A stretch of DNA of 64,000 bases from an uncultured Verrucomicrobiaceae bacterium (GCA_964515735.1 CAZEVP010000001.1:14749-78748); one strand, 5' to 3'. Counted from the stretch's first letter, positions 30,278 to 53,613 are shown. Notes: a model not told the origin generated them from the letters alone. Numbers and translations are program-made.

Positions 30278-30650
30278 TGGTTGCGCATGTGGCTTCTGGC
30301 ACGGTTCATTGTCATGAAGGCGACTGGAGAATCCCCTTAACGACCAGACTCCATGCGACTAATCTGCCATGCAATCCCATGGCTTCTGATGCGGCACATT
30401 TTCAGTGTCAGGGAAAAGCTCATCGACAGAGCCGACGATGCATATTCTTCACTGACACCTTTGACTCGAGCTTACTGACAGGCAAATACAACTGGCGGGC
30501 AATACTACGCGGGGTACTGGTACTTATTTTTTCGATTGGGCTATCGAATAGGTTTTGCAGAGTTTAAAAACCAATGGCCGTCCGTGAATGAGAAATTCCT
30601 CTCAAATTCGAAAAACCGGAAGATATATATCGGTATCGGATTGGTTCGAA

Positions 30651-32128: not shown

Positions 32129-32155
32129 CGACTCTGCTCGATAAAGTTGTGACGG

Positions 32156-33883: not shown

Positions 33884-34001
33884 GCGGGTCTCGCGCGGTG
33901 GAGGCAACGGTAAGGGACGGCTGGAGGGCGGCGGTTCCGCGGCGGGCGCGGGCGGCGTATTATAGCCGCCCCTTTCACCCGATGAAAAAGACGGCCCGCG
34001 C

Positions 34002-36275: not shown

Positions 36276-38003
36276 ATGGCCGTCAAAGTCTACGAACGCA
36301 TCCTTGAGCTCTTCGAAGCAGAGGGCATCAACACCGTCTTCGGCATCCCGGATCCCAACTTCGTTCACCTGTTCGTAGCGGCCGAAAAGCGCGGCTGGAA
36401 TGTCGTCACGCCGCACCACGAACTGTCGGCGGGCTTCATGGCCGAAGGCTATGCCCGCATGACCGGCAAACCCGCGCTCTGCATCGCCACGCTGGGCCCG
36501 GGCATCGCCCTCACCTCCGGCTCGATGATGACGTCGCTGGTCGAGAACACGCCGGTCATCTACATCGGCGGCCAGCGCGCCCGCATCACCGAGCAGCGCG
36601 TGCGTCGCGGCCGCATCCAGTTCATCCAGCAGGAAGCGCTGTTCGAGAACTCGGTGAAGTGGAGCGCCAGCATCGAGTACGCCGACCAGACCGACGAAAT
36701 CATTCGCCACGCGCTGCGCGTCTGCCAGTCCGGCACGCCGGGCCCGGTCTACATCGAATACCCGTCGCACATCATCCAGCAGGAGCTGGACGTGCCGCCG
36801 GCGCTGCCGCCGTCGAGCTACCGTCTGGTCGAGCCGGGCGCGGACGGCAACATGGTGGCCAAGGCCGCCGAGCTGATCAAAAACGCGCAGTGCCCGGTGC
36901 TGCTGGTCGGTCACGCCGTGCAGTGCACGCGCGCCGGCCAGAAGGTGAAGGAGCTGGCCGAGCTGATGGGCTGCCCGGTGCTGCAGACCTCCGGTGGCAA
37001 CGCCTTCATCGAAGGCATCGAAGATCGCACCTTCCCCTACCTGTTCGCCGAAGTGGCCGATGAAATCGTCGCCAAGTCCGACGTCGTCGTCGCCATCGGC
37101 ACCGAGATCGGCGAGCCGGTGCACTACGGCCGCGGCTACCTGTGGGCCAAGGGCAACGTCGACCGCAAGTGGATCTACGTCGAACTCGACCCCGAGGCGA
37201 TCGGCCAGAACCGCCCGATCGACGTGCCGCTGGTCGGCGACCTGCGCACCGTCGTACCGCAGCTCTCCGCGGCTCTGAAAGACAGCCCGCGCAAGGAACA
37301 CCCGGACCTGCAGCGCTGGATCAAGGAGGACAAGGAGCGCCTGCACAAGCTGACGCAGCAGGACTTCAAGACCGAAAGCGGCCGCGTCCACACCGGTCAG
37401 TGGGTCATCGAAGCCACCAAAGCCATGCCGAAGAATGCGATCCACGCACGCGACGGCGGCTGCACCGTGATCTTCACGTGGACCTACCTGCAGTCCAAAC
37501 CGCACGACGTGGTCTGGAACCAGAACTTCGGCTGCCTCGGCACCGGTCTGGGCTATGCCATCGGCGCATCGATCGCCGACGGCGGCAAGCGCCCGGTACT
37601 GCTGACCACCAGCGACTCGTCGTTCCTGTATCACATCGGCGATCTGGAAGTGGTGCAGCGCTTCAACCTGCCGATGGTCATCGTCGTCGGCGTGGATAAC
37701 GCGTGGGGTCTGGAAGTGGGCGTCTACAAGCGCACCTTCGGCCACGGCAACACCACCGAGCCGGGCGTGCACTGGAGCAAGAACGTGCGCTTCGACGAAA
37801 TCGCCAAAGGTCTCGGCTGCGAAGGCGTTTACGTCGACAAGGGCGAGGACCTCGGCGCGGCCGTCACGGCGGCATTCGAGAGCGGCAAACCGACCGTCAT
37901 CCACGTGCCGATCGATCCGGTCATCAACCACGGCGGCAACAAGAACCTCGATACGCCGAACTACGACCGCTTCCGCACCTGGTACGCCGAAGGCCAGCAG
38001 TAA
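36276..38003 (+). CDS. Thiamine-diphosphate-dependent enzyme, acetolactate-synthase-like three-domain fold (paralogue A)
   Basis: 575 aa. N-terminal PYR domain with PHHELSAGFMAEGY (catalytic Glu context). C-terminal PP domain with TSDSSFLYHIGDLE...VVGVDNAWG. Family-specific QRVRRGRIQ and C-terminal PNYDRFRTWY. Confidence 0.85.
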   Translation: MAVKVYERILELFEAEGINTVFGIPDPNFVHLFVAAEKRGWNVVTPHHELSAGFMAEGYARMTGKPALCIATLGPGIALTSGSMMTSLVENTPVIYIGGQRARITEQRVRRGRIQFIQQEALFENSVKWSASIEYADQTDEIIRHALRVCQSGTPGPVYIEYPSHIIQQELDVPPALPPSSYRLVEPGADGNMVAKAAELIKNAQCPVLLVGHAVQCTRAGQKVKELAELMGCPVLQTSGGNAFIEGIEDRTFPYLFAEVADEIVAKSDVVVAIGTEIGEPVHYGRGYLWAKGNVDRKWIYVELDPEAIGQNRPIDVPLVGDLRTVVPQLSAALKDSPRKEHPDLQRWIKEDKERLHKLTQQDFKTESGRVHTGQWVIEATKAMPKNAIHARDGGCTVIFTWTYLQSKPHDVVWNQNFGCLGTGLGYAIGASIADGGKRPVLLTTSDSSFLYHIGDLEVVQRFNLPMVIVVGVDNAWGLEVGVYKRTFGHGNTTEPGVHWSKNVRFDEIAKGLGCEGVYVDKGEDLGAAVTAAFESGKPTVIHVPIDPVINHGGNKNLDTPNYDRFRTWYAEGQQ

Positions 38004-38140: not shown

Positions 38141-38938
38141 TCAGCAGAGGTTCGTGTGCACGGTGGAGTTCGCGTTCCAGAACCAGTAGAAATAGCCGTT
38201 CTCGGTCTGCAGAAGAGTATGGGTCAACAAACTGTTCTTCCGGAGATGCCCCCAACAGGCGCGCGCCGAATTGCGATTGCCGTGCAGATCCACGCACTCC
38301 TGCCCAAACAGGGCGGGCATCGGCGGGATATACAACGCACTGCCACGCGGTACCCACAAATCCGCCAGCCGGATCTTGCCTGACTTCGGCCAGTAACGTC
38401 CCACCGAGATAACCAGCGGCAGTTCCGCGTCGGTGGAGGCAAAGATATGCGGGAAATCGTGATGTTCGAGATCGGTGCAGACGATGGTGAGCAGCTGATT
38501 GCCCGTCTCCTGATACGGCGACCAGTGACCGGCAAAAACACCGTATTCGTATTCAACCTGCGAGAGCCTCGCGACAGGGCTCGACAACACCACCGCCTGA
38601 CCGGGCTCCACCAATGTAATTCCAAACGCTGCAGCCACCTCGCGAGTCGCCCACATCGGCTCGTATACAACCTCTTTGGCGACGAATCCGAGCTGCGTCT
38701 CTATCCCATAAGGCGGTTTGGGTTTAACGCCAATGATTTCCGAAACGACATACTCCCGCCCCATTGCCACGCGGGGATCGGTGGTTGCTGGAGCAAGCGG
38801 TGTCACACCGGATGGCAACACCTCGAGATAGGTCGGATTGCCGTTATCGTTGTAAAAGAACGGGGTTGAGGAGATATCGACTTCCGTTTCACCTTTCCCG
38901 ATCTCAAAAAGCGGGGCATCAAAATATCCGTTGGCCAA
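38141..38938 (-). CDS. Hypothetical protein (265 aa), low-GC orphan
   Basis: Intact ORF MANGYFDAPLFEIGKGETEVD...WFWNANSTVHTNLC. No motif recognised. Bracketed by two bidirectional terminators. Confidence 0.55.
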   Translation of the reverse strand: MANGYFDAPLFEIGKGETEVDISSTPFFYNDNGNPTYLEVLPSGVTPLAPATTDPRVAMGREYVVSEIIGVKPKPPYGIETQLGFVAKEVVYEPMWATREVAAAFGITLVEPGQAVVLSSPVARLSQVEYEYGVFAGHWSPYQETGNQLLTIVCTDLEHHDFPHIFASTDAELPLVISVGRYWPKSGKIRLADLWVPRGSALYIPPMPALFGQECVDLHGNRNSARACWGHLRKNSLLTHTLLQTENGYFYWFWNANSTVHTNLC

Positions 38939-39021: not shown

Positions 39022-40446
39022 TTACTGCGGCTGATAGCCAAGCAGCGACTTGATCTCCAGATACTCATGGAAACCGAACTCGCCCCACTCGCGGCCATTG
39101 CCGCTCTTCTTGTAGCCACCGAACGACGCATGGAAGTCGAAGCCGTCGTTGAGCGAGACCCAGCCCGAACGGATCTGGCGCGCCACGTCGCGCACCTTGT
39201 CCAGATCGGCGCCGGCGACGTTACCGGCGAGACCGAACGGCGAATCGTTGGCAATCTCGACAGCGTGATCGACGTCGTCATAACCGATGATGACCAGCAC
39301 CGGCCCGAAGATCTCTTCGCGCGCGATGACCATGTCGTTGGTGACATTGCCGAACACCGTCGGCTTCACGTAGAAACCTTTGGTCAACCCTTCCGGATGC
39401 CCCGGACCACCAGCCACCAGCGTGGCGCCCTCCTCGATCCCTTTCTGGATGTACTCCTGAATCGAATTGAACTGCGACTTCGAAACCACCGGCCCCATCG
39501 CCACGTCGCTGTTCGGATCGCCGACGGTCACCGAGGCGGCGGCCTCTTTCGCGACACGCATGGCTTCCTCCATGCGTGCCTTCGGCACCAGCATGCGCGA
39601 CGTCGCGCTGCAGGTCTGACCGGAGTTGACCATCATGCCGGTGACGCCCTTGGCGACGTTCTGCGCGAAATCGGCGTCGTCGAGAACGATGTTGGCGCTC
39701 TTGCCGCCCAGCTCCTGACAGACGCGCTTGACCGTATCGGCCGCGGCCTTGGCAACCTCGATGCCGGCGCCCTCGGAACCGGTGATCGACACCATGTCGA
39801 TGCCGGGATGACGCGCGATCGCATCGCCAACCACCGAGCCGCGTCCCTGAATCATGTTGAATACGCCGGCCGGCACACCGGCGGCATCGAAAATCTCGGC
39901 CAGAATATGCGCCGAGTAATGCGACTCCTGCGACGGCTTCAACACCACGGTGCAGCCGGCCGCCAGTGCCGGGAACACCTTGACGGTGACCTGATTGATC
40001 GGCCAGTTCCACGGCGTGATCATGCCGACGACGCCGATCGGCTCCTTGACGATCATCGTCTGGCCGCGCAGCTCGTCGAACCTGAATTCCTTCAGCACTT
40101 CAATGGCAGTGGTCAGGTGGCCAAGACCGAGGCCAATGTGGAAACCGCCGGCCAGCCCTTTCGGCGCGCCCATCTCTTCGGTGACGGCTTTCGCCAGATC
40201 GTCGGTGCGTTTCTGATACTCGGCGAGAATGCGCTCGAGCACCGCGACCCGCTCTTCGCGCGTCGTGCGCGACCAGCTTCCGAAGGCCTTGCGGGCCGCC
40301 TTGACGGCGCGATCGACGTCGGCGGCACCACCAAGCGCGATGGTGCCCGACGGCTCTTCGGTCGCCGGATTGATCGGATTTACCGTCTTGAATTCGATCG
40401 GGTCGACCCACTGGCCGTCGACGTAGAACTTCAGATATTCGCGCAT
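39022..40446 (-). CDS. NAD(P)-dependent aldehyde dehydrogenase
   Basis: FYVDGQWV...ELGGKSANIV...catalytic-Cys block SGQTCSATSRMLV...EEIFGPVL. ATG at 40446 (MREYLKFYVDGQW) preferred; the track ORF starts at 40467. Confidence 0.92.
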   Translation of the reverse strand: MREYLKFYVDGQWVDPIEFKTVNPINPATEEPSGTIALGGAADVDRAVKAARKAFGSWSRTTREERVAVLERILAEYQKRTDDLAKAVTEEMGAPKGLAGGFHIGLGLGHLTTAIEVLKEFRFDELRGQTMIVKEPIGVVGMITPWNWPINQVTVKVFPALAAGCTVVLKPSQESHYSAHILAEIFDAAGVPAGVFNMIQGRGSVVGDAIARHPGIDMVSITGSEGAGIEVAKAAADTVKRVCQELGGKSANIVLDDADFAQNVAKGVTGMMVNSGQTCSATSRMLVPKARMEEAMRVAKEAAASVTVGDPNSDVAMGPVVSKSQFNSIQEYIQKGIEEGATLVAGGPGHPEGLTKGFYVKPTVFGNVTNDMVIAREEIFGPVLVIIGYDDVDHAVEIANDSPFGLAGNVAGADLDKVRDVARQIRSGWVSLNDGFDFHASFGGYKKSGNGREWGEFGFHEYLEIKSLLGYQPQ

Positions 40447-40582
40447 GAGTGGAACCGTCCTCTTCATGAACAGATAGCCGGCGACAACGCGCCGGCTACA
40501 TGTGACAGGTGTCTTGCATGATCGTGCCGCCCGATCTTAAGGAGCGACACGATTATTGCAACCAATCGGTCCGTACAACGCA

Positions 40583-42331
40583 TCAATAAGCGTCTTCGGC
40601 CTCCGCCCCGTAACCGGCCTTGAAGTCGGTGTACCAGGATTTGAACTCCTCGTAGTTCGGTGCCTCCATCGCGTTGGCGTAGGGCTCGACCGGCACCTGG
40701 ATCACCACCGGCCGGCCACTGGCGGCCGCGCGCTCGATGGCGGCGGCAACCGTCGGCGCGATGTCTTCCTCGCGTTCGACGTAGTGGCCCTCGGCACCGA
40801 AGCCCTCGGCGACCTTGTCGAAGCGCACCCAGTTGCCCCAGTGCGCTTCGGTCTCCGGTGAATCGGGACCAACCTGCTTCTTCCAGCAGCCGACTTCCAG
40901 ACCCCAGGCGTAATCACAGGCGACCACCGTGACGATCGGCAGTTTCTTGCGCACGGCGGTCTCCAGTTCGTTCAGCGAGAACATGAACGAGGAGTCACCG
41001 GTGATGAAGACGACCGGGCGCTTGCCGTCGGTCGCCAGCGCTGCGCCGATCGCATACGGCAGGCCGGTGCCGAGATGGCCGGTGTTCTGGTTCCACACCA
41101 GATCCTCCGGCTTGTACTGCGAATAGGTCCAGCCGTAGATCGTGGTGGAGCCACCGTCGGCCGCGTAGATAGCGTTGCTCGGAATGACCTTGGTGGCCTC
41201 GACGATCAGGCGCGCCGGGTGCACCGGGGAGCCGCCGCTCGGCACCTCGTCCAGCAGCCTGGCGCGCCACTCTTTCTGCATCGTTTTCCAGCTCTGGAAT
41301 TCGGCGCTGCCGCTGCGCTGGAAATCGCCCAGCGCGTCGATCAGCTGCGGAATGATGTCGCGCATGCAGCCGACCAGCGGCGCGTCGATCGGACGGTTCA
41401 CACCGATGGCGGCGGCGTCGCGCTCGATGTAGATCCACTTGCGGTTGGCGTCGCCCTTCTCCCAGTGACGGCCGATGCCCATGTGCACCGGCTCGCCGAG
41501 TTCGGTGCCGATGGCGATGCAGAGATCGGATTCACCGGCGGCGGCGCGGCCGGCCGGCGAGAAGCCGTAGGCGAAGGTGCGCTCCTCCTGGCCCTTGATC
41601 GTCATCGAGCAGCCGGAGGTCTGCAGGATCGGGCAATCGAGCTTCTCGGCGAGCTGCGCGACCAGCGCGTGCGAACGCGAGGTGAACATGCCCTGCCCGA
41701 CCAGCAGCACCGGGTTCTTCGCCGCCTTGATCAGCTCGACGGCTTTCCTGACCATCGTGCCGCTGGCCGCCTGTTCGACCATGCGGTACTTCTCCGGCGC
41801 CTGCACCGGCGGCCAGTTGTAGGTCTCGTGAATGACCGACAGCGGCAGCTCGACGTAGACCGGGCCGGGCTTGCCGGTGGTGCACTGACGAATCGCCTCG
41901 CGCACGATCTCATCGACCTGATCCGGCTCTTCGATGATGGCGGCGTATTTCACCAGCGGCCGGAAGTGGTCGATCTGGTTCATGTACTGGATGCGGCCGA
42001 CGCGGGCGCGCTGGTTGGCGGTGCGCGAGCGGTTGCCACCGAAGAAGATCGTCGGCGAGCCCTCTTTCTTGGCGACGATCATCGCCGTGGCCAGGTTGGA
42101 GACACCGGGACCCTGGGTGCCGAAGCAGACGCCCGGCTTGCCGGTCATGCGCGACCAGGCATCGGCCATGAAGGCGCCATTCTGCTCGTGGTGCGGCGCG
42201 ACCACTTTCCAGCCGCGCTTCTCGCACACCATGGCCATGTGGATGAAGCCCGGATCGGGAATGCCGAACAGCGTGTTGATTCCTTCGGCTTCGAGCAGGT
42301 GGACGATGCGCTCGTGAACGGGTACGGACAT
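40583..42331 (-). CDS. Thiamine-diphosphate-dependent enzyme, ALS-like fold (paralogue B)
   Basis: 582 aa, collinear with paralogue A. PHHEQNGAFMADAW, QRARVGRIQ, TGDSSFMFSLNELE...VVACDYAWG, C-terminal PNYEEFKSWY. Confidence 0.85.
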   Translation of the reverse strand: MSVPVHERIVHLLEAEGINTLFGIPDPGFIHMAMVCEKRGWKVVAPHHEQNGAFMADAWSRMTGKPGVCFGTQGPGVSNLATAMIVAKKEGSPTIFFGGNRSRTANQRARVGRIQYMNQIDHFRPLVKYAAIIEEPDQVDEIVREAIRQCTTGKPGPVYVELPLSVIHETYNWPPVQAPEKYRMVEQAASGTMVRKAVELIKAAKNPVLLVGQGMFTSRSHALVAQLAEKLDCPILQTSGCSMTIKGQEERTFAYGFSPAGRAAAGESDLCIAIGTELGEPVHMGIGRHWEKGDANRKWIYIERDAAAIGVNRPIDAPLVGCMRDIIPQLIDALGDFQRSGSAEFQSWKTMQKEWRARLLDEVPSGGSPVHPARLIVEATKVIPSNAIYAADGGSTTIYGWTYSQYKPEDLVWNQNTGHLGTGLPYAIGAALATDGKRPVVFITGDSSFMFSLNELETAVRKKLPIVTVVACDYAWGLEVGCWKKQVGPDSPETEAHWGNWVRFDKVAEGFGAEGHYVEREEDIAPTVAAAIERAAASGRPVVIQVPVEPYANAMEAPNYEEFKSWYTDFKAGYGAEAEDAY

Positions 42332-42438: not shown

Positions 42439-43842
42439 TCAGGACTTCTTGATCAGGCGCGGTGCACCGGTTCCCATGAAACGCCCCAGATGGCGATGGA
42501 AGTTGGTGATCTTCTGCTCCTGATGCGGGTTCGGCAGCGTGCCGCGGAAACCGCGCGACTTCATTCCTTTCTGCACCCACTCCATGTTGGCGAAATCCTG
42601 CGCCAGCACCATGCCCCACTTCTCGGCGGTCGGCTCGGCGTAGACCCACTCGGCCTTCGGCTCCTCCCCTTCCGGGAAGCGTTCGAGCGCGTAGGACTCG
42701 AAGATGCACTTGTTCGGATCGCGGCCATACGGACGCACGCGATAGCAGAGCGCGAAGGTGATGCCCTGCAGGATGGTCTGGTTCGGGAACAGGCTCCAGG
42801 CCAGCCCCGCTTCGGATTGCTGCGCCGGCGTCAGCTCCGGCCAGATGACGCCACGTTTGGCATCATCGGCCTTGGCCGATTTCAGCCAGTGCGCGAGCAC
42901 CTCCTGCACCGGCGTGCCCTCGGGCAGCTCGTCGACGAGGCGCTTGGCCGCGTTCACCAGCGTTTCGGTGGAGGCGGCGTAGTTGACCGTTTCGTAATTC
43001 TCGCGCGCCAGCTCGTAGGTGGAGATACGCGGGTCGCCGAGACCGGCGCGCGTCACCGACGTGCTCTGCGCGGTTTTCTGGCTGGCGTCGCGCTCGTCGA
43101 AACCGCTGACGCCGTGCAGGCCGTACGGTTTGCTGTAGGCATAGAACTGGCCGTACTTCAGCAGCTGCGAGTGGGTGCCGGCGACGTGGTACGGCTCCAT
43201 GAACGCTTCGATGGCGGTCTTCCAGTTGCACGGATAGATCGCCCACTGGCGCCACTTGTAGCGCATCTTGTCGAACTGAAACGGGCTGAGGATGCGATCG
43301 ACCTCGCCGAGGAAGTCGAGCAGCGGCTCGCACTCCGGGTCCATGTTGACGTAGATCCAGCCACCCCAGGTGTCGACCTTCAGTTCGGACAGGCAGGTCA
43401 GCGCTTCGTCGTCGAGCGCGCCCTTCCAGTCCTGCTTGTCGAGGATGTGGGTGTTCCTGCCCTCGAGGTTGAAGGTCCAGCCGTGGAAGCCGCAGACGAA
43501 ATTCTTCTTCTTGCCCTTGACGCAGTTGACGTCGTCCGGCGTGTTGACCAGCTGGCGGCCGCGGTGCGGGCAGACGTTGTAGTACGCCTTCAGCGTGTCG
43601 GGCGCGGTGCGGATGACGATGATCGACTCGTCGAGGATGTTGTAGGTGATGAAGTTGCCGACCTCGGGAATATCCTCGACGCGGCCGGCCATCTGCCACA
43701 CCTTCGACCAGAGCTTCTCCATCTCCGCATCGGCGTACTCCTGCGAAACGAACGCATCGACCGGATAGGTCAACGGCTCCGCCAGATCGGCATCCGTCAC
43801 CGCAATTCTGTCCTGAACCGGAATCTCTGTTTTCTTGTTCAT
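42439..43842 (-). CDS. Rieske [2Fe-2S] non-heme-iron oxygenase, alpha-type subunit (paralogue 1)
   Basis: Rieske CPHRGRQL...CGFHGWTF. Catalytic-domain EAFMEPYHVAGTH. ATG at 43842 (MNKKTEIPV, parallel to paralogue 2) lies 9 nt after the BVMO-1 stop. Confidence 0.9.
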   Translation of the reverse strand: MNKKTEIPVQDRIAVTDADLAEPLTYPVDAFVSQEYADAEMEKLWSKVWQMAGRVEDIPEVGNFITYNILDESIIVIRTAPDTLKAYYNVCPHRGRQLVNTPDDVNCVKGKKKNFVCGFHGWTFNLEGRNTHILDKQDWKGALDDEALTCLSELKVDTWGGWIYVNMDPECEPLLDFLGEVDRILSPFQFDKMRYKWRQWAIYPCNWKTAIEAFMEPYHVAGTHSQLLKYGQFYAYSKPYGLHGVSGFDERDASQKTAQSTSVTRAGLGDPRISTYELARENYETVNYAASTETLVNAAKRLVDELPEGTPVQEVLAHWLKSAKADDAKRGVIWPELTPAQQSEAGLAWSLFPNQTILQGITFALCYRVRPYGRDPNKCIFESYALERFPEGEEPKAEWVYAEPTAEKWGMVLAQDFANMEWVQKGMKSRGFRGTLPNPHQEQKITNFHRHLGRFMGTGAPRLIKKS

Positions 43843-43851
43843 GGCTCTCAC

Positions 43852-45717
43852 CTATCGACCAGATTCAACGATCAGACCTTCCAGATCACCTTTGTTCCGC
43901 CACTCTTCCATCCACTGCTCGAAGGCATCCCAGCCCGGGCCGTAGGTCTCGCCCAGCGCGTAACGGATGCGCTCCTTGCCCGCTTCGTCGGCCACCTTGT
44001 GGCCCTCGTTGTTGTAGTAGCCGGGCGGGCACTGATTGAGGAAGTCGGAGATGTCGACAGCCGTTTCGCGCAGATGGTTCACGTAGGCGGTCTGCGCCTC
44101 TTCGCTCGGCTCCACGGCAACGGCGCCGCGCGCCAGCGCCTCCTTGATGATGTAGGCGATGTGGTAACCCTGCTGGCCGTACTGTTCGGTGGTGCTGCCG
44201 TTGAGACCGCCCTGGTAGTAACCGATGAAGTACTGGTTCGGGAATTTGGTGGTCATAACGCCGTGGAAGGTCTTGTAGCCGCGCGCCCAGTGGTCGTAGA
44301 TCGACACGCCGTCGCGGCCGACATAGCTGCCGATGCCCCAGCGGCGGTCGAGATCACTGCTCACCTCGAAACCACTGGCGAAGATCATGCAGTCGATCTC
44401 GTACTCCTTGCCGTTGGCGACGAAGCCCTTCTCGGTCATCCGCTCCACGCCCTGCGTATCCGACACGTCGATCAGCTCGACGTTGGGGCGGTTGAAGGTG
44501 TCGTAGTAGTCGTCGTTGGAGAGCGGGCGCTTGCACAGGAAGCGGTACCAGACCTTCAGCTTCTCGGCGGTTTCCTTGTCCTTGACCAGCGTGTCGACGC
44601 GGTGGCGCATGCGTTCCATGACGCGGAAGTCCATCACTTCGCGGCGGGCGAAGTAATCCTCGATCGTGATCGTCTCGTCGATGCCCTCGGCGCGCAGCTC
44701 GGCGGCCATGTTGCGGCTGATCTCGGTCCAGAAGTCGCACACCTGATCGTCTTCACCGGGCCGCAGACGCCCCTCCACGGCAGCGTGGTGGAAGTTGGCG
44801 ATGCGCTCCTTCTGCCAGCCGGGCTTGAGGCTCTTCGCCCACTCGGGATCGGTCGGCGCGTTGTAGCGCTGGTCCACCGCCGACGGCGTGCGCTGCAGTA
44901 CGTAGACCTGCTTCGCGTATTTGCCGAGATAGGGAATGGCCTGAATGGCGGTGGCGCCGGTGCCGATGATCGCCACGCGCTTGTCGGCCAGCTTGTCCAG
45001 CACCGGGTTGCGGTAGCTGCCGCCGCTGTAGTCGTACTCCCAGCGCGAGGTGTGGAACATCTTGCCCTTGAAGTCGTGGATGCCGGGAATGCCGGGCAGC
45101 TTGGGAATGTTCAGCAGGCCGTTGGCCATGATGACGTGGCGCGCGCGGATGTCGTCGCCGCGGTTGGTGCCGATGCGCCAGCGCTTGATGCTCTCGTCCC
45201 AGCGCAGCGAGGTGACCAGCGTGTGGAACAGCGCGCCGTCGCCGAGGCCGAACTTGCTGGCGATCTGCTTGATGTAGTCGTAGATCTCGTAGCCGTCGGA
45301 GTATTTCTTCGACGGCATGAAGCCGGTCTCTTCGAGCAGCGGCAGGTAGCAGTAAGCGTCGTTGTCGCACTGGATGCCGGGGTAGCGGTTCCAGTACCAG
45401 ACACCGCCCCAGTCGCCGCCGTGGTCGATGTTGCGGAAGTTGGTGACGCCGGCCTTCTTCAGGTGATAGGCGGCCAGCACGCCGGAAAAACCGGTGCCGA
45501 GAACGGCGACGTCGAGATCCTCGGAGACCGGATCGCGCGGCACCACCGGCATGTGCGGGTCGGCGAAATAGGATTCGCTGAACTCCTCCGTGGTCTTGGC
45601 ATATTGCTTCTGCCCTTCCGGCCGGATGCGCCGGTCGCGCTCCTTGCGGTATCGCTCCTGCAGCGCCGGAATGTCGATTTCAGAAGCCGGCGGCACATTG
45701 GTGGACTGGCATTTCAT
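43852..45717 (-). CDS. Type I Baeyer-Villiger (flavin/NADPH) monooxygenase (paralogue 1)
   Basis: 621 aa. GxGxxG VAVLGTGFSG, GGVWYWNRYPGIQCD, BVMO fingerprint FKGKMFHTSRW, second Rossmann VAIIGTGATA. Confidence 0.88.
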   Translation of the reverse strand: MKCQSTNVPPASEIDIPALQERYRKERDRRIRPEGQKQYAKTTEEFSESYFADPHMPVVPRDPVSEDLDVAVLGTGFSGVLAAYHLKKAGVTNFRNIDHGGDWGGVWYWNRYPGIQCDNDAYCYLPLLEETGFMPSKKYSDGYEIYDYIKQIASKFGLGDGALFHTLVTSLRWDESIKRWRIGTNRGDDIRARHVIMANGLLNIPKLPGIPGIHDFKGKMFHTSRWEYDYSGGSYRNPVLDKLADKRVAIIGTGATAIQAIPYLGKYAKQVYVLQRTPSAVDQRYNAPTDPEWAKSLKPGWQKERIANFHHAAVEGRLRPGEDDQVCDFWTEISRNMAAELRAEGIDETITIEDYFARREVMDFRVMERMRHRVDTLVKDKETAEKLKVWYRFLCKRPLSNDDYYDTFNRPNVELIDVSDTQGVERMTEKGFVANGKEYEIDCMIFASGFEVSSDLDRRWGIGSYVGRDGVSIYDHWARGYKTFHGVMTTKFPNQYFIGYYQGGLNGSTTEQYGQQGYHIAYIIKEALARGAVAVEPSEEAQTAYVNHLRETAVDISDFLNQCPPGYYNNEGHKVADEAGKERIRYALGETYGPGWDAFEQWMEEWRNKGDLEGLIVESGR

Positions 45718-45803
45718 GCGAAGACCTCTTCAGACGGTGCTGGTTTGACGATTCCGGTTCAGGCACGGAGCCGGATGGCGATGATCCACATCATATTGTG
45801 AGT

Positions 45804-45824
45804 CAACAGTGTTGTCTACTGTTG
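45804..45824. promoter_or_regulatory. Overlapping palindromes CAACAgTGTTG / CAACAGT-N7-ACTGTTG upstream of the BVMO-1 operon
   Basis: Read directly, 87-107 bp upstream of the BVMO-1 ATG. The same CAACA-N-TGTTG core occurs upstream of BVMO-2. Confidence 0.45.
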
Positions 45825-46011: not shown

Positions 46012-46770
46012 TCACTGCATGTAGCGGCCACCGTTGACGCTCAGCGTCAGCCCGGTGATGTAGCCCGAGGCCTCGGAGGCCAGGAACGCCACGGCATTGG
46101 CGATGTCCTCCGGCTGCCCGACCCGGTTCACCGGAATCTGGCTCTTGGTATAGCCTTCGATGCCACCGGCCAGACGCGCCTCGACCGATTTCAGGCCGTC
46201 GGTGTAGACGAAGCTCGGCGGCACGTTGTTGACGGTGATGCCGAGCGGCCCGACCTCCTGCGCCAGCGACTTGGTGAAGGCGATGACGCCGCCCTTGGTC
46301 GCCGCGTAGTGCACCATGCGCTTCGCGCCGGACTGCGCGCTGGACGAGGAGATGTTGATGATGCGGCCCCACTTGGCATCGATCATGTCGCCGATGATCG
46401 CCTGCGTGCACATGAAGAGCCCCTTCATGTTGATGTCGAAGACGCGGTCCCAGTCCTCGAGCGTGATGTCGACGAAATCCTTCTCCGGCGAGATCGCCGC
46501 GTTGTTGACCAGAATGCCGATCGGCCCCAGCTGCTCGCGCACCGTCTTCACGGCCGCTTCGATCTGGCTGCCATTGGAGACGTCGACCTGGCAGATCACC
46601 ACCCGGCGCCCGAGCGCCTTCACTTCGTCCGCGACGCTCTGCGCGGCGTCGGTGTTGCGGTCCCAGATCGCGATGTCGGCGCCGTCGCGCGCCAGGAAAC
46701 GGCAGATCGCCGCGCCGATGCCCGCCGCGCCACCGGTCACCACCGCCACTTTTCGCTTCGATTCAGTCAT
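46012..46770 (-). CDS. Classical short-chain dehydrogenase/reductase (SDR-1)
   Basis: VVTGGAAGIGAA, NNAA, SSSSAQ...YAATKGG catalytic tetrad context. Confidence 0.9.
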   Translation of the reverse strand: MTESKRKVAVVTGGAAGIGAAICRFLARDGADIAIWDRNTDAAQSVADEVKALGRRVVICQVDVSNGSQIEAAVKTVREQLGPIGILVNNAAISPEKDFVDITLEDWDRVFDINMKGLFMCTQAIIGDMIDAKWGRIINISSSSAQSGAKRMVHYAATKGGVIAFTKSLAQEVGPLGITVNNVPPSFVYTDGLKSVEARLAGGIEGYTKSQIPVNRVGQPEDIANAVAFLASEASGYITGLTLSVNGGRYMQ

Positions 46771-46881: not shown

Positions 46882-47646
46882 TCAACCGCCGACGATCTCG
46901 GCGATCACTGCCTTCAGCGCCTGCGAGTAACTCTTCAGGTTCTTCTGCATGCGCGGAATCGGCCCGGCCATGCCGATCGCCAGCTGGTGCCCCTGCACCT
47001 TCAGCGGCACCGCCAGCCCCATGACATCGGCGAGGTGTTCGCCAACCGTGGTGTATATCCCCTGCGCCTCGGCCTGCTGCAGGTTCTCCTTCAGCTCCTT
47101 CTTGCGCGTGATGGTGTGTTCGTTGAAGCGCGCCAGCTTCAGCTCGGTCAGCAGCTGGTTGCGCACGTCCTCGTCGAGGTTGGCCAGCAGCGCCTTGCCG
47201 AGAGCGCTGGCATGGATCGACTTCAGATCGCCGGACGAGGCCGTGTAGCGCACCGCGTGGGTGCCATCGAACACCTCCGAATAGACCACCTGATGGCCCT
47301 GCAGACGACCGATGAGCACGGTCTCGCCAGTCAGGTCGCGCAGCCGCTTCAGTTCGTTCTGTATCCGCTCCTTGATCGGATTGAACTGCCCCACCTTCTC
47401 GGCCGTCTCCAGCAGTCGACGCGACGGGTAGTAACTGCGGCCGCCGTCGATCGCGATGATGTAGCCCAGATGGATCAGCGTCTGGATCAGCTCGAAACAG
47501 CTGCTCTTCGGCGCCGCCATCGATTCCGACAGCTCAGCCAGCGACAGCGGCCGCCGCATCTCGGCGAACACCCCGAACAGCTGCATCGTGCGAATCGCCG
47601 ACTTGACCAGCTTTGTCGACCCTGCGTTTCCCATATCGTCGAACAC
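46882..47646 (-). CDS. IclR-family transcriptional regulator (IclR-1)
   Basis: N-terminal wHTH (SAIRTMQLFGVFAEMRRPLSLAELSESMAAPKSSCFELIQTL) plus C-terminal IclR effector domain. Start is GTG 47646 or ATG 47634. Confidence 0.88.
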   Translation of the reverse strand: MFDDMGNAGSTKLVKSAIRTMQLFGVFAEMRRPLSLAELSESMAAPKSSCFELIQTLIHLGYIIAIDGGRSYYPSRRLLETAEKVGQFNPIKERIQNELKRLRDLTGETVLIGRLQGHQVVYSEVFDGTHAVRYTASSGDLKSIHASALGKALLANLDEDVRNQLLTELKLARFNEHTITRKKELKENLQQAEAQGIYTTVGEHLADVMGLAVPLKVQGHQLAIGMAGPIPRMQKNLKSYSQALKAVIAEIVGG

Positions 47647-47745: not shown

Positions 47746-48483
47746 TCACTCGTTCTGCTTCAGAAAACGCTGCACCGCTTCGCGCAGCAACGCGCCGAAC
47801 TCGGCCTCGCGCCCCTCGATGCGCGGGCTCGGCCCGCCCAGCGCGATCGCGTTGCGGCGACCGCGAAACGGAAACGGCACCGCGATGCCGGCGACGCCCG
47901 GCGCGTAGACACCGGGATTGACGTACCAGCCATCGGCGGCGCTGTCCTGCAGATCGCGCTCGACCTCGTCGGCCGTCATGAACTGCGCCTTTTCGTAACG
48001 CTGGTAGCTGATCCGTTTCAGGATCGCCGCGCGCTCGGGCGGCGAATACTGGGCAAGGATGGCGCGGCCCGCCGCCGCCACCTGGATCGGCAGGCGCTGG
48101 CCGACATGGGCGATGAAACGAATGTCCGCGCTCGATTCGACGACGTCGATGAAAACCACGCTGCTGCCCTCCGGCGCGGCCAGCAGCAGCGTCTCGCCGG
48201 TGCGATGCGCGAGTTCGGCCAGCAGCTCGTGCACCGACTCCGGCAGCGGCTGCGCATCCGACAGCTCGCGCGCCAGCTCCATCCAGCGCGTCGTCGGGTA
48301 ATAACCGCCGCGCGGCACCGGCTGATAGAGATAACCGCGCTCGACCATCGTCGAGACGATGTTGAAAGCGCTCGAACGCGGCCATGCGAATTCGTCGACG
48401 ATCTCGCGCACCGACAGCGGCCGCTTCGCGCGAACGAAGAACTCCATCAGGTCGAAAAGGTTCGCGATCTGCTTGACAAGCAT
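47746..48483 (-). CDS. IclR-family transcriptional regulator (IclR-2)
   Basis: ATG at 48483: MLVKQIANLFDLMEFFVRAKRPLSVREIVDEFAWPRSSAFNIVSTM... wHTH plus IclR effector domain. Confidence 0.88.
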   Translation of the reverse strand: MLVKQIANLFDLMEFFVRAKRPLSVREIVDEFAWPRSSAFNIVSTMVERGYLYQPVPRGGYYPTTRWMELARELSDAQPLPESVHELLAELAHRTGETLLLAAPEGSSVVFIDVVESSADIRFIAHVGQRLPIQVAAAGRAILAQYSPPERAAILKRISYQRYEKAQFMTADEVERDLQDSAADGWYVNPGVYAPGVAGIAVPFPFRGRRNAIALGGPSPRIEGREAEFGALLREAVQRFLKQNE

Positions 48484-48533
48484 GGGCCAGCCTCCGTTAG
48501 ATACGAACATCGTACATAAATGTGATCTTAATA

Positions 48534-48549
48534 GTCCAATATATTGGAC
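48534..48549. promoter_or_regulatory. Perfect 16-bp palindrome GTCCAATATATTGGAC in the IclR-2 / CxxC-protein divergent region
   Basis: Read directly. 51 bp from the IclR-2 ATG and 91 bp from the 48640 ATG. Confidence 0.6.
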
Positions 48550-48639
48550 AAATAAACAAGGCTTCACCCATGGCCCACGCCTGACACAAGTGCAACCGAA
48601 ACGCCCCGAACCGGGGCCGACGACGAGGAGGAAAAATAA

Positions 48640-49206
48640 ATGAGCAGAGGCAACGTGCTGGACCCGACGGCGCTGCGCGCCGACGACATCACCTCACCCG
48701 GCCCCGACGCCGGCCCGCTGGCGGGCAAGGTGGTCGGATTCCGTCTCGACGAGATCTGGCGGGCGTGGGACTGGATCGTCGACATCTGGGCCGACGAATT
48801 CCGCAAGGCCGGCGCCACCGTGAAGCTGTGGCGCTCGAATCAGGGGCGCACCGGCGCCGAGGGTGAGCGTCTCGCCCGGGAGCTGGACGAATTCCTCGGT
48901 TCGATCGACATCGCCGTGGTCGGTCTCGGCAACTGCGGCTCGTGCACCGGCTGGACCATTCGCGACGCGCTGGCCGCGGCGGCGAAGGGGCTGCCGACCA
49001 CGGCGGTCTGCACCGAGGTGTTCGAGGAGCTGGGCCACAACCTGGCGCGGCGCGGCGGCCGCTCGGGGCTGCGCATCCACATCCTGCCCTACCCGCTCAA
49101 CGAAAAACTGAAGGAAGAGGTCGAGCCGGTGGCTTACGACCATCTCGCCGGCATGTTGCAGACGATGGGCGCCGAACTGAAAGCCCGCAAGGAGGCCGCG
49201 CGATGA
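48640..49206 (+). CDS. Small CxxC protein, UGSC-family-like (Cys form: N-C-G-S-C-T)
   Basis: 188 aa, strong SD GAGGAGG 8 nt upstream. Motif VVGLGNCGSCTGWT (TGC GGC TCG TGC at 48934-48945). Family assignment is from memory of the motif only. Confidence 0.55.
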   Translation: MSRGNVLDPTALRADDITSPGPDAGPLAGKVVGFRLDEIWRAWDWIVDIWADEFRKAGATVKLWRSNQGRTGAEGERLARELDEFLGSIDIAVVGLGNCGSCTGWTIRDALAAAAKGLPTTAVCTEVFEELGHNLARRGGRSGLRIHILPYPLNEKLKEEVEPVAYDHLAGMLQTMGAELKARKEAAR

Positions 49207-50348
49207 GCAGAACGATCAGACCGGGCAGCAGCAGCGCGCCGCAGCAGAAAGTGGTCAACCTGCGCGACTGCGGACCGCAGGGCTGTGATCTCGACTGGCT
49301 GTCGAGCCAGCGCCACGACGTCGAGATCGACGACGTCATGGCCTTCACGCACGAGGCGATGGAGAAAGGCTGGGGCGATGGCCTGCCGCTGATTCCGCCG
49401 ACCGAGGGGCGCGTGCGCGAATTCCTGTCGCAGAACAACCGCTACCCCGACGAGGTGATCTGCCGGCTGCCGCCGTCGGATGCCGAGTGCACGGTCGAGA
49501 AGATCGCGATCAACGCGGTGATGGCCGGCGCACCGGCGCAGTCGCTGCCGCTGATCATCGCCGCGCTGGAGGCGATGGCCGATCCCGACTTCGAACTGTT
49601 CGGCCTCAACGCGACGACGGCGCCGGTGGTGCCACTGACGCTGGTCAACGGCCCGATCCGCGAGCGGCTGAACATTCCGTACCGGCACGGCTGTCTCGGC
49701 GGCGCGCCGACGACGGCGCTGGCGATCGGCCGCGCGATCCGTCTGCTGATCAAGAACGTCGCCGGGCAGGAGGTGAACGTCACCAGCCAGACCACGTTCG
49801 GTACGCCGGGCCGCGTCGCCGGCATTCTGTTCGGCGAGTGGGAGGAGCGCTCGCCGTGGGCGCCGCTGGCCGAGCGGCGCGGCGTGACGGGCGACGCGGT
49901 GACCGTCTACGGCACGATGGGGACGATGAACATCCTCGACACCACGTCGCAGAGCGGTCTCGACTTCCTCGAGATGATCGGCAAATCGCTCGGCTACCCA
50001 GCCGCCAACGGCTTCTCGCCGGCGATGCCGTTCGCCGAGATCATGGTGGCGATCAACCCGGTCTGGGCCGAAATCATCCACCGCGACGTGCCGAACCTCG
50101 CCGATGTGCAGGAGCTTATCTGGAAGTTCTCCAGCCTCGACGCCGACTACCTGACGAAGAAGCATCGCGATCAGCTCGACGCACAGGGACGGGTGATCGG
50201 CGGTCGCATCTATCTGGCGACCGAACCGAAGGATGTGCTGGTGGTCTGCTGCGGCGGCACCGGTGGCCTGCACGCCACCGGCTTCCACAGCTTCGGCAGC
50301 TGCCTGACGCAGACCCGGGCCATCGTGCCGGGGCCAGACAGCAAATAG
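49203..50348 (+). CDS. Conserved-looking protein of unknown function (381 aa), translationally coupled to the CxxC protein
   Basis: ATG at 49203 overlaps the upstream TGA (ATGA). Sequence MSRTIRPGSS...GWGDGLPLIPPTEGRV...VVCCGGTGGLHATGF. No motif assigned. The track ORF's upstream extension lies inside the previous gene. Confidence 0.6.
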   Translation: MSRTIRPGSSSAPQQKVVNLRDCGPQGCDLDWLSSQRHDVEIDDVMAFTHEAMEKGWGDGLPLIPPTEGRVREFLSQNNRYPDEVICRLPPSDAECTVEKIAINAVMAGAPAQSLPLIIAALEAMADPDFELFGLNATTAPVVPLTLVNGPIRERLNIPYRHGCLGGAPTTALAIGRAIRLLIKNVAGQEVNVTSQTTFGTPGRVAGILFGEWEERSPWAPLAERRGVTGDAVTVYGTMGTMNILDTTSQSGLDFLEMIGKSLGYPAANGFSPAMPFAEIMVAINPVWAEIIHRDVPNLADVQELIWKFSSLDADYLTKKHRDQLDAQGRVIGGRIYLATEPKDVLVVCCGGTGGLHATGFHSFGSCLTQTRAIVPGPDSK

Positions 50349-50440
50349 CGGATAACAAACAGCACCGGCACCGGCCGCTCTGACGGCGGAGCACTGTCGC
50401 GCAGTGCCCGCCGTCTTTCCGTTCCACAGAGGCTCTCTCC

Positions 50441-52144
50441 ATGCAAGTGAACATCTACGAGCGCGTCCTGCAGCTGTTGGAAGTCGAAGGCATCAGGACG
50501 CTGTTCGGCATTCCCGACCCGAGTTTCTTCCGCATGTTCAACTGCGCGCACGAGCGCGGCTGGCAGGTGGTCGCGCCGCATCACGAGGAGGCCGGCGCCT
50601 TCATGGCCGAGGCGCAGTGGAAACTGACCGGCGTGCCCGGCGTCGTCGTCGGCAATCAGGGGCCGGGTGTCGCCAACCTGGCGCCGGCGGCGATCTGCGC
50701 GGCCAAGGAGAATTCGCCGGTGATCTTCATCGCCGGCCAGCGCAACCACATCGCCGACCAGCGCGTGCGCCGCGGCCGCATCTCGTGGATCCGGCAGTGG
50801 GAGCATTTCGAGGCGTCGATGAAATATGTCGGCATCATCGAATTTCCGGAGCAGGTCGACGACATCGTGCGTGAGGCGTTCCGGCGCGCGCTGTCCGGCA
50901 CGCCGGGGCCGGTCTACATCGAGATTCCGATGAACTCGATGCACGCCGCGCTCGACCTGCCGCCGCCGTTGCCGCCCGAACACTACCGGCTGACGCGACA
51001 GGAGGCCGGCACGCGCGCGGTGAACAAAGCGGTCGAGCTGATCCGCGCGGCGAAACTGCCGATCCTGCTGGTCGGTCAGGGCGTGTTTCCGGCGCGCGCG
51101 CACGAAGCCGTCGGCGAACTGGCGCGGCTGCTGAAATGCCCGATCGTGCAAACCTCCGGCGGCAGCTCGTTCATCGCCGGTATGGAGGAGCGCACCTTTC
51201 CCTATGCGTTTTCGCCAGCCGGCAACGCTGCCGTCAGCGACAGCGATCTGGTCATCGCCATCGGCACCGAGATCGGCGAGCCGGTGCACCACGGCATAAA
51301 GGGCCACTGGGAAGCCAACGATGCCAGCCGCAAGTGGATCTACATCGAGCGCGACCCGCTGGCGATCGGCGTCAACCGCCGCATCGACGCGCCGCTGGTC
51401 GGCGATCTGCGCGACGTGGTGCCGCAACTGATCGAAGCACTGGCCGATATCGAGCGCGAACAGCCAGCGCAATTGAACGACTGGATCAGGATGCACGCCG
51501 ACTATCGCGCCGAGGTCGATGCAAAAGTACCGAGCGGGCGCCTGCCGATGCACACCGCGCGCTTCGTGCACGAAGCGACGAAGGCGATTCCCGACGACGC
51601 TGTACTGGTGCGCGACGGCGGTGCCGTCAGCATCTACGGCTGGACCCACACGCAGGTGAAACCGCGCGACCTGATCTGGAGCCAGAACTTCGGTCATCTC
51701 GGCACCGGCCTGCCCTATGCGATCGGCGCGCAGCTCGCCGTTAGCGACAGCCGCCGCGTCGTGCTGATGACCGGCGACTCGGCGTTCCTGTTCCACATCT
51801 CCGAACTGGAGACAGCGGTGCGCAAGAACCTGCCGGTGATCTGCATCGTCGGCTGCGATTACGCCTGGGGGCTGGAGGTGCGCGGCTATCGCGGCTTCGT
51901 CGGTCCCGGCACCAACGAGACCGAGGCGCACTGGGGGCGTCAGGTTCGCCTCGACAAGACCGCCGAGAGCTTCGGCGCCTACGGCGAATATGTCGAACAC
52001 GAGGCCGACATCGGCCCGGCCATCGAACGCGCGCTGGCAAGCGGCAGACCGGCGGTGATCCAGGTGCCGGTCGATCCCGATGCGCACGCGAAGGAGGTGC
52101 CCGGTCACGAGCAGTATTCGACCTGGTACCACGATTTCATCTGA
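50441..52144 (+). CDS. Thiamine-diphosphate-dependent enzyme, ALS-like fold (paralogue C)
   Basis: 567 aa. PHHEEAGAFMAEAQ, QRVRRGRIS, TGDSAFLFHISELE...IVGCDYAWG, C-terminal PGHEQYSTWY. Confidence 0.85.
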   Translation: MQVNIYERVLQLLEVEGIRTLFGIPDPSFFRMFNCAHERGWQVVAPHHEEAGAFMAEAQWKLTGVPGVVVGNQGPGVANLAPAAICAAKENSPVIFIAGQRNHIADQRVRRGRISWIRQWEHFEASMKYVGIIEFPEQVDDIVREAFRRALSGTPGPVYIEIPMNSMHAALDLPPPLPPEHYRLTRQEAGTRAVNKAVELIRAAKLPILLVGQGVFPARAHEAVGELARLLKCPIVQTSGGSSFIAGMEERTFPYAFSPAGNAAVSDSDLVIAIGTEIGEPVHHGIKGHWEANDASRKWIYIERDPLAIGVNRRIDAPLVGDLRDVVPQLIEALADIEREQPAQLNDWIRMHADYRAEVDAKVPSGRLPMHTARFVHEATKAIPDDAVLVRDGGAVSIYGWTHTQVKPRDLIWSQNFGHLGTGLPYAIGAQLAVSDSRRVVLMTGDSAFLFHISELETAVRKNLPVICIVGCDYAWGLEVRGYRGFVGPGTNETEAHWGRQVRLDKTAESFGAYGEYVEHEADIGPAIERALASGRPAVIQVPVDPDAHAKEVPGHEQYSTWYHDFI

Positions 52145-52155
52145 GGAGAACGCAC

Positions 52156-53583: not shown

Positions 53584-53613
53584 AAGAAAAACGCCCCGCG
53601 AGTGCGGGGCGTT
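53584..53613 (-). terminator. Intrinsic terminator after Rieske-2
   Basis: On the minus strand: aacgccccgc-actc-gcggggcgtt followed by tttttct. Perfect 10-bp stem. Confidence 0.8.

Follow-up and report, generated by a model that had tools for sequence, protein, structure and literature searches.

Introduction

In the classical operons built around a Baeyer-Villiger monooxygenase (BVMO), such as those for cyclohexanol (chn), cyclopentanol (cpn), cyclododecanone and camphor, the genes encode an alcohol dehydrogenase (ADH) or short-chain dehydrogenase/reductase (SDR), the BVMO, a lactone hydrolase, an ADH and an aldehyde dehydrogenase (ALDH). The enzymes of the PockeMO/CPDMO/PtlE group of type I BVMOs accept bulky cyclic or polycyclic ketones. 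Rieske monooxygenases of the CntA/GbcA/Stc2 type are alpha-only enzymes, and the alpha-oxidation module (peroxisomal phytanic acid pathway; actinobacterial 2-hydroxyisobutyryl-CoA lyase) consists of a 2-hydroxylase, a 2-hydroxyacyl-CoA lyase dependent on thiamine pyrophosphate (TPP) and an aldehyde dehydrogenase. In this work we analyzed a stretch of 64,000 nt from an uncultured Verrucomicrobiaceae bacterium (GCA_964515735.1 CAZEVP010000001.1:14749-78748; hereafter the window), in which a BVMO gene is directly followed by a gene for a Rieske oxygenase (RO) alpha subunit. The pair occurs twice, as module 1 (42439-45717) and module 2 (53671-56903).

We consider it reasonably likely that the BVMO and Rieske alpha genes are the conserved, co-transcribed core pair of a widespread and uncharacterized aerobic catabolic operon, and that their products act independently of each other on consecutive intermediates of one carbon skeleton. 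Oxygenases of both classes are well known from textbooks and catabolic operons often contain several oxygenases, so that a pair of this kind is no surprise. The novelty lies in the recurrence of one BVMO subclade and one Rieske subfamily, together with a TPP enzyme and an ALDH, as a four-gene core, among others in marine Cellvibrionales.

Results

Conservation of the BVMO-RO pair

Relatives of the locus were collected by a scan with an RO alignment, taking one genome per species, which gave 80 loci (numbered with the prefix L); 72 of them had enough upstream flank for adjacency counts. Counts of gene content (TPP, ALDH and SnoaL genes) refer to 82 loci, and a reciprocal scan from the BVMO side was run in metagenomes. 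In 53 of the 72 independent loci (74%) the RO gene is immediately preceded, in the same direction, by a BVMO gene of the same clade, a recurrence that argues against chance adjacency; in 57 such a gene is found within 8 kb. The adjacency noticed in this genome by a first-pass annotation, made by a model from the sequence of the window, is therefore conserved well beyond it. Carriers include Halioxenophilus, Pseudomaricurvus, Zhongshania, Spongiibacteraceae, Halieaceae, Sphingobium, Sphingomonas, Novosphingobium, Caulobacter, Solimonas, Steroidobacteraceae and Ketobacter, and the adjacency spans several bacterial classes (with members of the Cellvibrionales, Sphingomonadales, Caulobacterales, Nevskiales and Steroidobacteraceae, among others). 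Orthologues of both paralogous pair types are present in other genomes, and two pairs per genome were found in L003, L015, L018, L038, L070 and L100. In the reciprocal metagenome scan the BVMOs with an RO neighbor were solely those of at least 53% identity, and none of the ∼65 relatives at 43-51% identity had such a neighbor; RO association is confined to one BVMO subclade.

The commonest core order is (SDR/SnoaL)-BVMO-RO-TPP enzyme-ALDH. TPP homologues occur in 52 of the 82 loci and ALDH genes in 48, the latter mostly after the TPP gene. The TPP gene that follows the RO resembles either TPP_a or, in many loci, TPP_c of the window (both described below), and L019 and L027 carry both. Upstream of the pair, an SDR gene is found in L003, L004, L007, L009, L011, L016, L023, L075, L077, L080 and the Ketobacter locus L083, and a TauD gene in L003, L015, L018 and L038; a SnoaL gene stands beside the BVMO or the RO in 22 loci, in variable position. 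The order can also be reversed, as RO-BVMO-(TauD)-SDR, in the metagenome contigs L092, L094, L095 and L096, whose ROs are 53-57% identical to RO2. IclR genes recur in related loci, and frequent flanking genes in other genomes encode an IclR regulator, an acyl-CoA synthetase, a double-hotdog hydratase, a family III CoA-transferase, a P450 and FadL, TonB or Mce uptake proteins; a lactonase-like gene of the SGL type (SMP30-like) is present in 16 loci. The Ketobacter locus reads SDR-BVMO-RO-ALDH-pyrroloquinoline quinone (PQQ) ADH-Zn ADH, with FadL, CoA ligases and hydratases. A link to the steroid Rieske enzymes of Sphingobium sp. Chol11 was considered and rejected: those enzymes are KshA homologues and belong to another family, and L070 is a metagenome-assembled genome (MAG) with that label.

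The two genes are also separable. No BVMO lies within ±8 kb of the RO gene in 15 of the 72 loci, for example in Mycobacterium, L006, L019 and L027, where the RO orthologues are 64-82% identical (80-81% in Mycobacterium); L019 and L027 have the order RO-TPP-TPP-ALDH. Conversely, Phenylobacterium (L053) carries BVMO-TPP-ALDH without an RO at that place, its RO being located elsewhere on the same contig. A gene is inserted between BVMO and RO in L037 (SnoaL) and in L024 and L026 (TauD), and in L040 the BVMO is divergent from the RO. Neither the 120 best relatives of each protein (BVMOs of 606-643 aa, ROs of 431-487 aa) nor the 66 pairs for which intergenic distances were determined included a fused BVMO-RO protein. 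On plasmid pJCM12687 of Mycobacterium branderi (L168, 10864-13365), the gene before an RO orthologue of 80.6% identity encodes an LLM-class flavin-dependent oxidoreductase, which may be a non-orthologous flavin monooxygenase partner, and Mce lipid-uptake genes and an ALDH gene are located nearby; in L013 and L014 there is no such LLM gene before the RO and a MarR gene is found upstream instead.

The BVMO and Rieske proteins

BVMO1 (43852-45717, minus strand; 621 aa) is a type I BVMO with an N-terminal extension and belongs to the PockeMO/CPDMO/PtlE clade, and BVMO2 (55047-56903, minus strand; 618 aa) is its paralogue. Both match the FMO-like and Pyr_redox families of Pfam. BVMO1 aligns over its full length with PockeMO (5mq6; E = 2.5e-119), including the N-terminal extension of ∼60 residues, and with PAMO (E = 1e-82). 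The best-scoring NCBIfam model, that for PtlE (NF045818), gave 613.7 bits for BVMO1 and 621 bits for BVMO2, and neither protein reached the curated equivalog cutoff of 1100 bits for the PtlE/PntE neopentalenolactone D synthase; we take the two proteins to share a clade with PtlE and, as judged from these scores, to be a different enzyme.

In an alignment of 12 family members the motifs GTGFSG, GGVWYWNRYPGIQCD, FKGKMFHTSRW, GTGATA and CKRP are invariant. The two Rossmann motifs of BVMO1, G74-T-G76-F-S-G79 for FAD and G252-T-G254-A-T-A for NADPH, are thus kept in 12 of 12 sequences, and GGVWYWNRYPGIQCD fits the long type I fingerprint [A/G]GxWxxxx[F/Y]P[G/M]xxxD exactly. The short fingerprint FxGxxxHxxxW[P/D] is represented by FKGKMFHTSRW, in which the residue after W is E in BVMO1 and N in BVMO2, not P or D. 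By phmmer, D118 (in QCD) and R397 (in CKRP) of BVMO1, both invariant, align with the RCD and TKRL segments of PAMO, whose active-site residues we take to be D66 and R337. No Fe-S domain or cysteine-cluster motif was detected in the BVMO proteins by sequence inspection and Pfam. BVMO1 and BVMO2 look like catalytically intact type I enzymes.

RO1 (42439-43842, minus strand; 467 aa) and its paralogue RO2 (53671-55050, minus strand; 459 aa) are alpha subunits of Rieske non-heme iron oxygenases and match Pfam Rieske (E = 4e-14) and Ring_hydroxyl_A. The first-pass annotation had put both pairs by eye at roughly 60-70% protein identity; the measured 62% between BVMO1 and BVMO2 falls at the low end of that range and the 59% between RO1 and RO2 just below it. 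In 26 aligned sequences the [2Fe-2S] ligands of RO1 (C91-P-H93...C117-G-F-H120) are invariant, as are E216-x2-H219-x4-H224 and D416, which align with the bridging Glu, the two His and the "ED" segment of CntA; D416 is the putative third ligand of the mononuclear iron. The ROs stayed far below the cutoffs of the GbcA model and of other named models. RO1 scored 123 bits with the GbcA model (cutoff 670) over residues 25-230 only, and its match to CntA (E = 2e-26) covers residues 24-225 and a C-terminal segment of 22 residues only, so RO1 reached neither the curated cutoff nor the full-length similarity expected of a GbcA or CntA equivalog. The AlphaFold2 model of RO1 is of moderate quality (pLDDT 66.8), with a poor insert in the catalytic domain and a poor C-terminus, and Foldseek matched it to the generic Rieske alpha fold, alpha3 and alpha3beta3 relatives alike, with TM ∼0.45-0.5 for all. 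RO1 and RO2 look catalytically competent, as alpha subunits with CntA-like iron ligands. No canonical Ring_hydroxyl_B beta-subunit gene was found by Pfam beside the ROs of the window. The SnoaL-like protein encoded downstream of RO2 was considered as a possible Rieske beta subunit; it gave no Ring_hydroxyl_B signal even at E ≤ 5, and its PDB matches were Rv3472, SgcJ and LinA.

Gene junctions and intergenic spacing

Gene limits and junctions were read directly on the minus strand of the window. Across the module 1 junction the sequence is ...TCGA TAG GTGAGAGCC ATG AAC: the BVMO1 stop codon TAG (43854-43852) is followed by a 9-nt spacer, GTGAGAGCC (43843-43851), and by the RO1 start codon ATG (43842-43840), and a Shine-Dalgarno (SD)-like AGGTGA overlies the stop codon. 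In module 2 the sequence is ...AGGAGAGTGCGAC ATGA AC; the RO2 ATG (55050-55048) overlaps the BVMO2 TGA (55049-55047) within an ATGA (55047-55050) that coincides with the recombination breakpoint described below, and an AGGAGAG motif lies 8 nt upstream of the overlap. Both layouts are as the first-pass annotation had described them. The two window pairs show the spacing taken as a mark of translational coupling (overlap or a gap of at most ∼15 nt, with an SD at or in the end of the upstream gene), and the BVMO/RO junction is the tightest one in both window operons.

For BVMO2 the longest mechanical open reading frame (ORF) reaches 57032, and position 56903 corresponds to Met44 of that frame. 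We assigned the start to 56903 because the alignments to BVMO1 and to the closest genome, L003, support it and nucleotide similarity to L003 is lost upstream of 56899. The first in-frame start of RO1 is a GTG at 43851; its homologues keep the N-terminus MNK.., which favors the ATG at 43842. An open frame of 1103 aa (42490-45801, plus strand) runs antisense across RO1 and BVMO1, and BVMO2 and RO2 are likewise covered by long antisense frames. They are shadow ORFs, as is usual in coding sequence with high G+C at third codon positions (GC3), and not genes. A promoter-like site is located at 45790-45818 (minus strand), ∼70 nt upstream of BVMO1; the count of such sites equals the expectation from shuffled sequence, and its position alone is suggestive.

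Stop-to-start distances in 66 BVMO-RO pairs lay between -29 and +288 nt (median 50 nt); the distance was 15 nt or less in 15 pairs, with overlap in seven, and nearly every RO has an SD-like motif of its own. Two pairs outside these 66 have another gene in between. In L003 the orthologue of module 1 has a 12-nt spacer and that of module 2 an 11-nt gap. Conservation of tight coupling among orthologous pairs was thus not borne out. We concluded that the short spacer of module 1 (9 nt) and the ATGA overlap of module 2 reflect local compaction of the operon and are not required by the family; in this organism such spacing quite possibly couples the translation of the two genes. The first-pass annotation had taken the tight coupling to suggest stoichiometric co-production; that the coupling is a selected feature with this meaning is not supported, in view of the median gap, the separate SD motifs, the reversed gene order in some contigs and the exchange of RO2. 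For annotation in general, tight gene spacing in a single genome should not be read as evidence of a protein complex.

History of the two modules

The closest genome is L003, in which RO1 is 95%, BVMO1 88% and BVMO2 91-92% identical; BVMO2 is also 77% identical to its counterpart in L070. By blastn, the modules of L003 are contiguous in the order TauD-BVMO2-RO2-SnoaL-IclR-SDR-BVMO1-RO1-TPP-ALDH, and the window has an extra block at 47746-52950 (IclR_b, UGSC, a 382-aa protein, TPP_b and SDR_b). The two modules are, as far as these comparisons go, anciently diverged paralogues that stand side by side in L003 and are split in the window by the inserted block. The duplication is old, because each window copy is closer to orthologues elsewhere than to its paralogue in the same genome.

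The nearest relatives of RO2 are in L018 and L010 (80-81% identity) and not in L003 (68%). Its cluster at ≥90% identity has 42 members, and one of these was found on 58 contigs from gammaproteobacterial MAGs. In the comparison with L003, nucleotide identity is ∼87% over BVMO2, 0.55 in 55098-54949, and ∼70% on average over RO2 and SnoaL; the drop near 55100 lies at the BVMO2/RO2 junction, opposite positions 2300-2400 of L003. Since identity falls at the junction and BVMO2 and RO2 have different nearest relatives, RO2 (with SnoaL) has evidently been replaced by recombination at the ATGA, the overlap having been created or retained there, and BVMO and RO partners would thus be exchangeable.

The distance matrices of BVMO and RO correlate with r = 0.50 over 64 pairs. 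In 34 loci with all four core genes the BVMO-RO correlation is 0.645, that of BVMO-TPP 0.59, and those of the other pairs 0.34-0.52. These values are consistent with shared operon inheritance and give no clear sign of special co-evolution; a mirror-tree argument for BVMO-RO co-evolution was rejected on the ground that the correlation is barely above that of the control gene pairs. The first-pass annotation had inferred that the adjacency predates the duplication and has been kept. The adjacency is indeed old; that BVMO and RO were duplicated as one unit is only roughly true, given moderate correlations of 0.50-0.65 that are little above the value for BVMO-TPP.

Gene neighborhood in the window

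Both modules lie in a 24-kb catabolic block flanked by housekeeping genes, with cysS, glnS, ppiB and miaE on one side and a pyridoxal phosphate (PLP) enzyme of Cys/Met metabolism, purF and cvpA on the other. The sizes of two ORF products at 30734-34078 (464 and 640 aa) had suggested a third BVMO-RO pair, which was rejected as the genes encode CysS and GlnS.

Module 1 has the order SDR-BVMO1-RO1-TPP enzyme-aldehyde dehydrogenase. SDR_a (46012-46770, minus strand; Pfam adh_short) is located upstream of BVMO1, TPP_a (40583-42331, minus strand; Pfam TPP_enzyme_N/M/C) directly downstream of RO1, and the ALDH (39022-40467, minus strand; Pfam Aldedh, E = 5.8e-151) is the last core gene. In the PDB search TPP_a gave 220 bits with catabolic acetolactate synthase (ALS), 178 bits with 2-hydroxyacyl-CoA lyase/oxalyl-CoA decarboxylase (HACL/OXC) and 122 bits with the actinobacterial lyase. 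The TPP enzymes of the window reached no NCBIfam model cutoff; assignments as ALS, HACL/OXC or cyclohexane-1,2-dione hydrolase were rejected, with scores below the family cutoffs and too close to one another. Together with TPP_b (50441-52144, plus strand), in the block between the modules, and TPP_c (36276-38003, plus strand; Pfam), at the edge of the cluster, TPP_a makes three paralogues of the ALS/OXC/HACL superfamily within one 16-kb region. Between the ALDH and TPP_c, an ORF of 265 aa (38141-38938, minus strand) has no family match and a lower GC3 of 0.68; the distance between these two genes is ∼970 nt in the window and 160 nt in L003, which points to an insertion of ∼800 nt in the window.

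Module 2 has the order TauD-family dioxygenase-BVMO2-RO2-(terminator-like hairpin)-SnoaL-like protein. The TauD/TfdA-family Fe/2-oxoglutarate dioxygenase (57232-58167, minus strand; Pfam TauD, E = 1.7e-52) is encoded upstream of BVMO2 and the SnoaL_4/NTF2-like protein (53029-53523, minus strand; Pfam SnoaL_4, E = 4.9e-17) downstream of RO2. The hairpin (53590-53613, minus strand) lies just past the RO2 stop codon and has a 10-bp stem with 8 GC and a T-rich tail; terminator-like sites overall are as frequent as in shuffled sequence, and for this one the position alone is suggestive. Divergent from the TauD gene is RO3 (58229-59707, plus strand; Pfam Rieske and Ring_hydroxyl_A), a third Rieske alpha subunit that is 31% identical to RO1 over its full length and has no BVMO partner of its own; partial matches of RO3 type (69-73% identity) were seen in L024 and L079.

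Between the modules are two IclR-family regulators (46882-47646 and 47746-48567, minus strand; Pfam HTH_IclR and IclR_C) and a plus-strand group at 48640-52950 with a UGSC-family protein, the 382-aa protein, TPP_b and SDR_b (Pfam). The 382-aa protein had no Pfam or NCBIfam hit. Its gene is found together with the UGSC gene also in L004, L007, L009, L023, L035, L042 and L093, and the two look like a conserved two-gene unit. Farther away, a tRNA-Ser (TGA) gene at 11087-11176 is followed by ∼19 kb of lower G+C content (to 30300; 55-60%, against 65-71% in the flanks) that codes for an exopolysaccharide cluster (Wzz/GNVR, Poly_export, Bac_transf); the stretch 11087-30300 is possibly a genomic island integrated at tRNA-Ser.

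Discussion

Proposed pathway

In the pathway that we propose, the BVMO would convert a ketone to an ester or lactone with NADPH and O2, the RO would hydroxylate a C-H position or cleave it oxidatively, drawing its electrons from a ferredoxin/reductase that is shared and not linked to the operon (an assumption from what is known of Rieske systems), and the ALDH would oxidize the resulting aldehyde. To judge from the gene neighborhood, the likely substrate is hydrophobic, a ketone or acid with an alicyclic or methyl-branched (isoprenoid-like) skeleton, and is handled in part as CoA thioester; the neighboring genes encode SDRs, ALDH, TPP enzymes, acyl-CoA synthetases, hydratases, CoA-transferases, lactonase-like proteins, P450s and FadL, TonB or Mce proteins. 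The carrier taxa include degraders of hydrocarbons, terpenoids and steroids. Identification of the substrate could reveal a widespread route for branched or alicyclic carbon, possibly with an esterase-independent resolution of Baeyer-Villiger products.

Four observations weigh against this proposal. In open-access papers and preprints no described substrate or activity was found for any member or for the gene pair or core, an absence that is not proof. Most loci, the window included, have no obvious esterase gene, which leaves the step after the BVMO unexplained; a single alpha/beta-hydrolase query, from Sphingobium RAC03, gave three weak matches in the 80 loci, other hydrolase families being outside that query. 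No ferredoxin or reductase gene was found among the scanned genes of the window, and motif scans over all loci for plant-type, adrenodoxin-type, Rieske-type and 3/4Fe ferredoxins and for FNR-type reductases found none consistently within ±8 kb in the 80 loci; the ferredoxin/FNR motif matches were scattered and mostly in shadow ORFs, with one small ferredoxin beside a P450 in L025. Finally, the BVMO and RO matrices are the best correlated of the core pairs, leaving room for a tie closer than operon membership.

Alternative explanations

The esterase gap could be closed by a hydrolase-free C-C cleavage carried out by BVMO and RO together, which we regard as unlikely. The BVMO would insert oxygen beside the ketone and the RO would hydroxylate the carbon to which the new ester oxygen is attached, or else the RO would make an alpha-hydroxy-ketone before the BVMO step; the product would collapse spontaneously to acid and aldehyde, and the downstream ALDH would oxidize the aldehyde. 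An iterative alpha-oxidation/Baeyer-Villiger variant, covered by the same estimate, would run from a hydroxylase (RO or TauD) over a TPP lyase to a methyl ketone, the BVMO and the ALDH, and repeat, removing the methyl-branched or quaternary carbons that block beta-oxidation in isoprenoid or alicyclic acids. If true, such cleavage would account for the strict linkage of the BVMO, RO, (TPP) and ALDH genes, for the lack of an esterase gene at most loci and for the presence of two or three paralogous sets in one genome. A weaker version, in which the two enzymes in addition interact physically or share electrons, is conceivable. A physical complex of the two oxygenases or a substrate channel, with tight coupling serving stoichiometric co-assembly, had been suggested by the first-pass annotation and draws on the adjacency in 74% of loci in both gene orders, on the top rank of the BVMO-RO correlation (0.645) and on the tightness of this junction in both window operons. 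We find it rather improbable nonetheless, for the gaps extend to 288 nt, genes are inserted in L037, L024 and L026, fusions are lacking among the best 120 relatives of either protein and the 66 pairs, RO2 was exchanged relative to BVMO2, either gene may be missing from the local operon, and the correlation hardly exceeds that of BVMO-TPP (0.59).

The lack of a consistent redox-partner gene, at the 80 loci as in the 64-kb window, also agrees with the further suggestion of the first-pass annotation that the BVMO, an NADPH-dependent flavoprotein predicted to bind both FAD and NADPH, takes the place of the Rieske reductase that is missing and donates electrons to the RO. Against this, every catalytic element of a Baeyer-Villiger enzyme is strictly conserved, which would be needless in a mere reductase, the BVMO has no Fe-S domain, and 15 of the 72 loci have RO orthologues with no BVMO in ±8 kb. 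Rieske systems often have their reductase gene at another locus (KshB; sphingomonads), the flavin of type I BVMOs is buried with NADP+ staying bound through the cycle, and we know of no case of flavin-to-Rieske electron transfer by a BVMO. We therefore think a reductase role very unlikely. Less likely still is that the two modules arose by a recent tandem duplication of one BVMO-RO unit within this genome: gene order and strand are alike and the modules are contiguous in L003, but the copies are only 59-62% identical, closer orthologues exist elsewhere for BVMO1, RO1 and BVMO2 (L003, L070) and for RO2 (L018, L010), and the flanks differ, with TauD/SnoaL in module 2 and SDR/TPP/ALDH in module 1. 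The reading that we retain is that of two independent enzymes encoded by an old and recurrent gene pair.

Comparison with known systems

Among described enzymes, the long type I BVMOs of the PockeMO/CPDMO/PtlE-PntE group resemble BVMO1 in full length, N-terminal extension and type I motifs. Both window BVMOs differ from PtlE in the model score (∼614-621 against 1100 bits) and in the short fingerprint, which ends in W-E/N instead of W-P/D, and none of the known PockeMO-group enzymes is reported to adjoin a Rieske oxygenase. CntA is the best match for the Rieske domain of RO1 and shares with it the bridging Glu, E216, in ExxHxxxxH and the C-terminal D...VQxGxKSRGxRG. The catalytic domain of RO1, however, is too divergent to align with CntA or GbcA and has a long insert (225-345) that is poorly predicted in the model, RO1 lacks an adjacent reductase gene of the CntB/GbcB type, and its context is one of hydrophobic, CoA-dependent catabolism and not of quaternary amines.

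The loci resemble the alpha-oxidation module in having a TPP enzyme followed by an ALDH, an oxygenase (RO or TauD) upstream and, in many loci, an acyl-CoA synthetase and a CoA-transferase nearby; the TPP enzymes score higher on catabolic ALS (220 bits) than on HACL/OXC (178), and the likeness is one of resemblance only. As in the classical BVMO operons, the gene for a type I BVMO is preceded by an SDR gene and followed by an ALDH gene, and 16 loci carry a lactonase-like gene. The loci differ from those operons in that a Rieske oxygenase and a TPP enzyme stand here in the places of the esterase or lactonase and the alcohol dehydrogenase.

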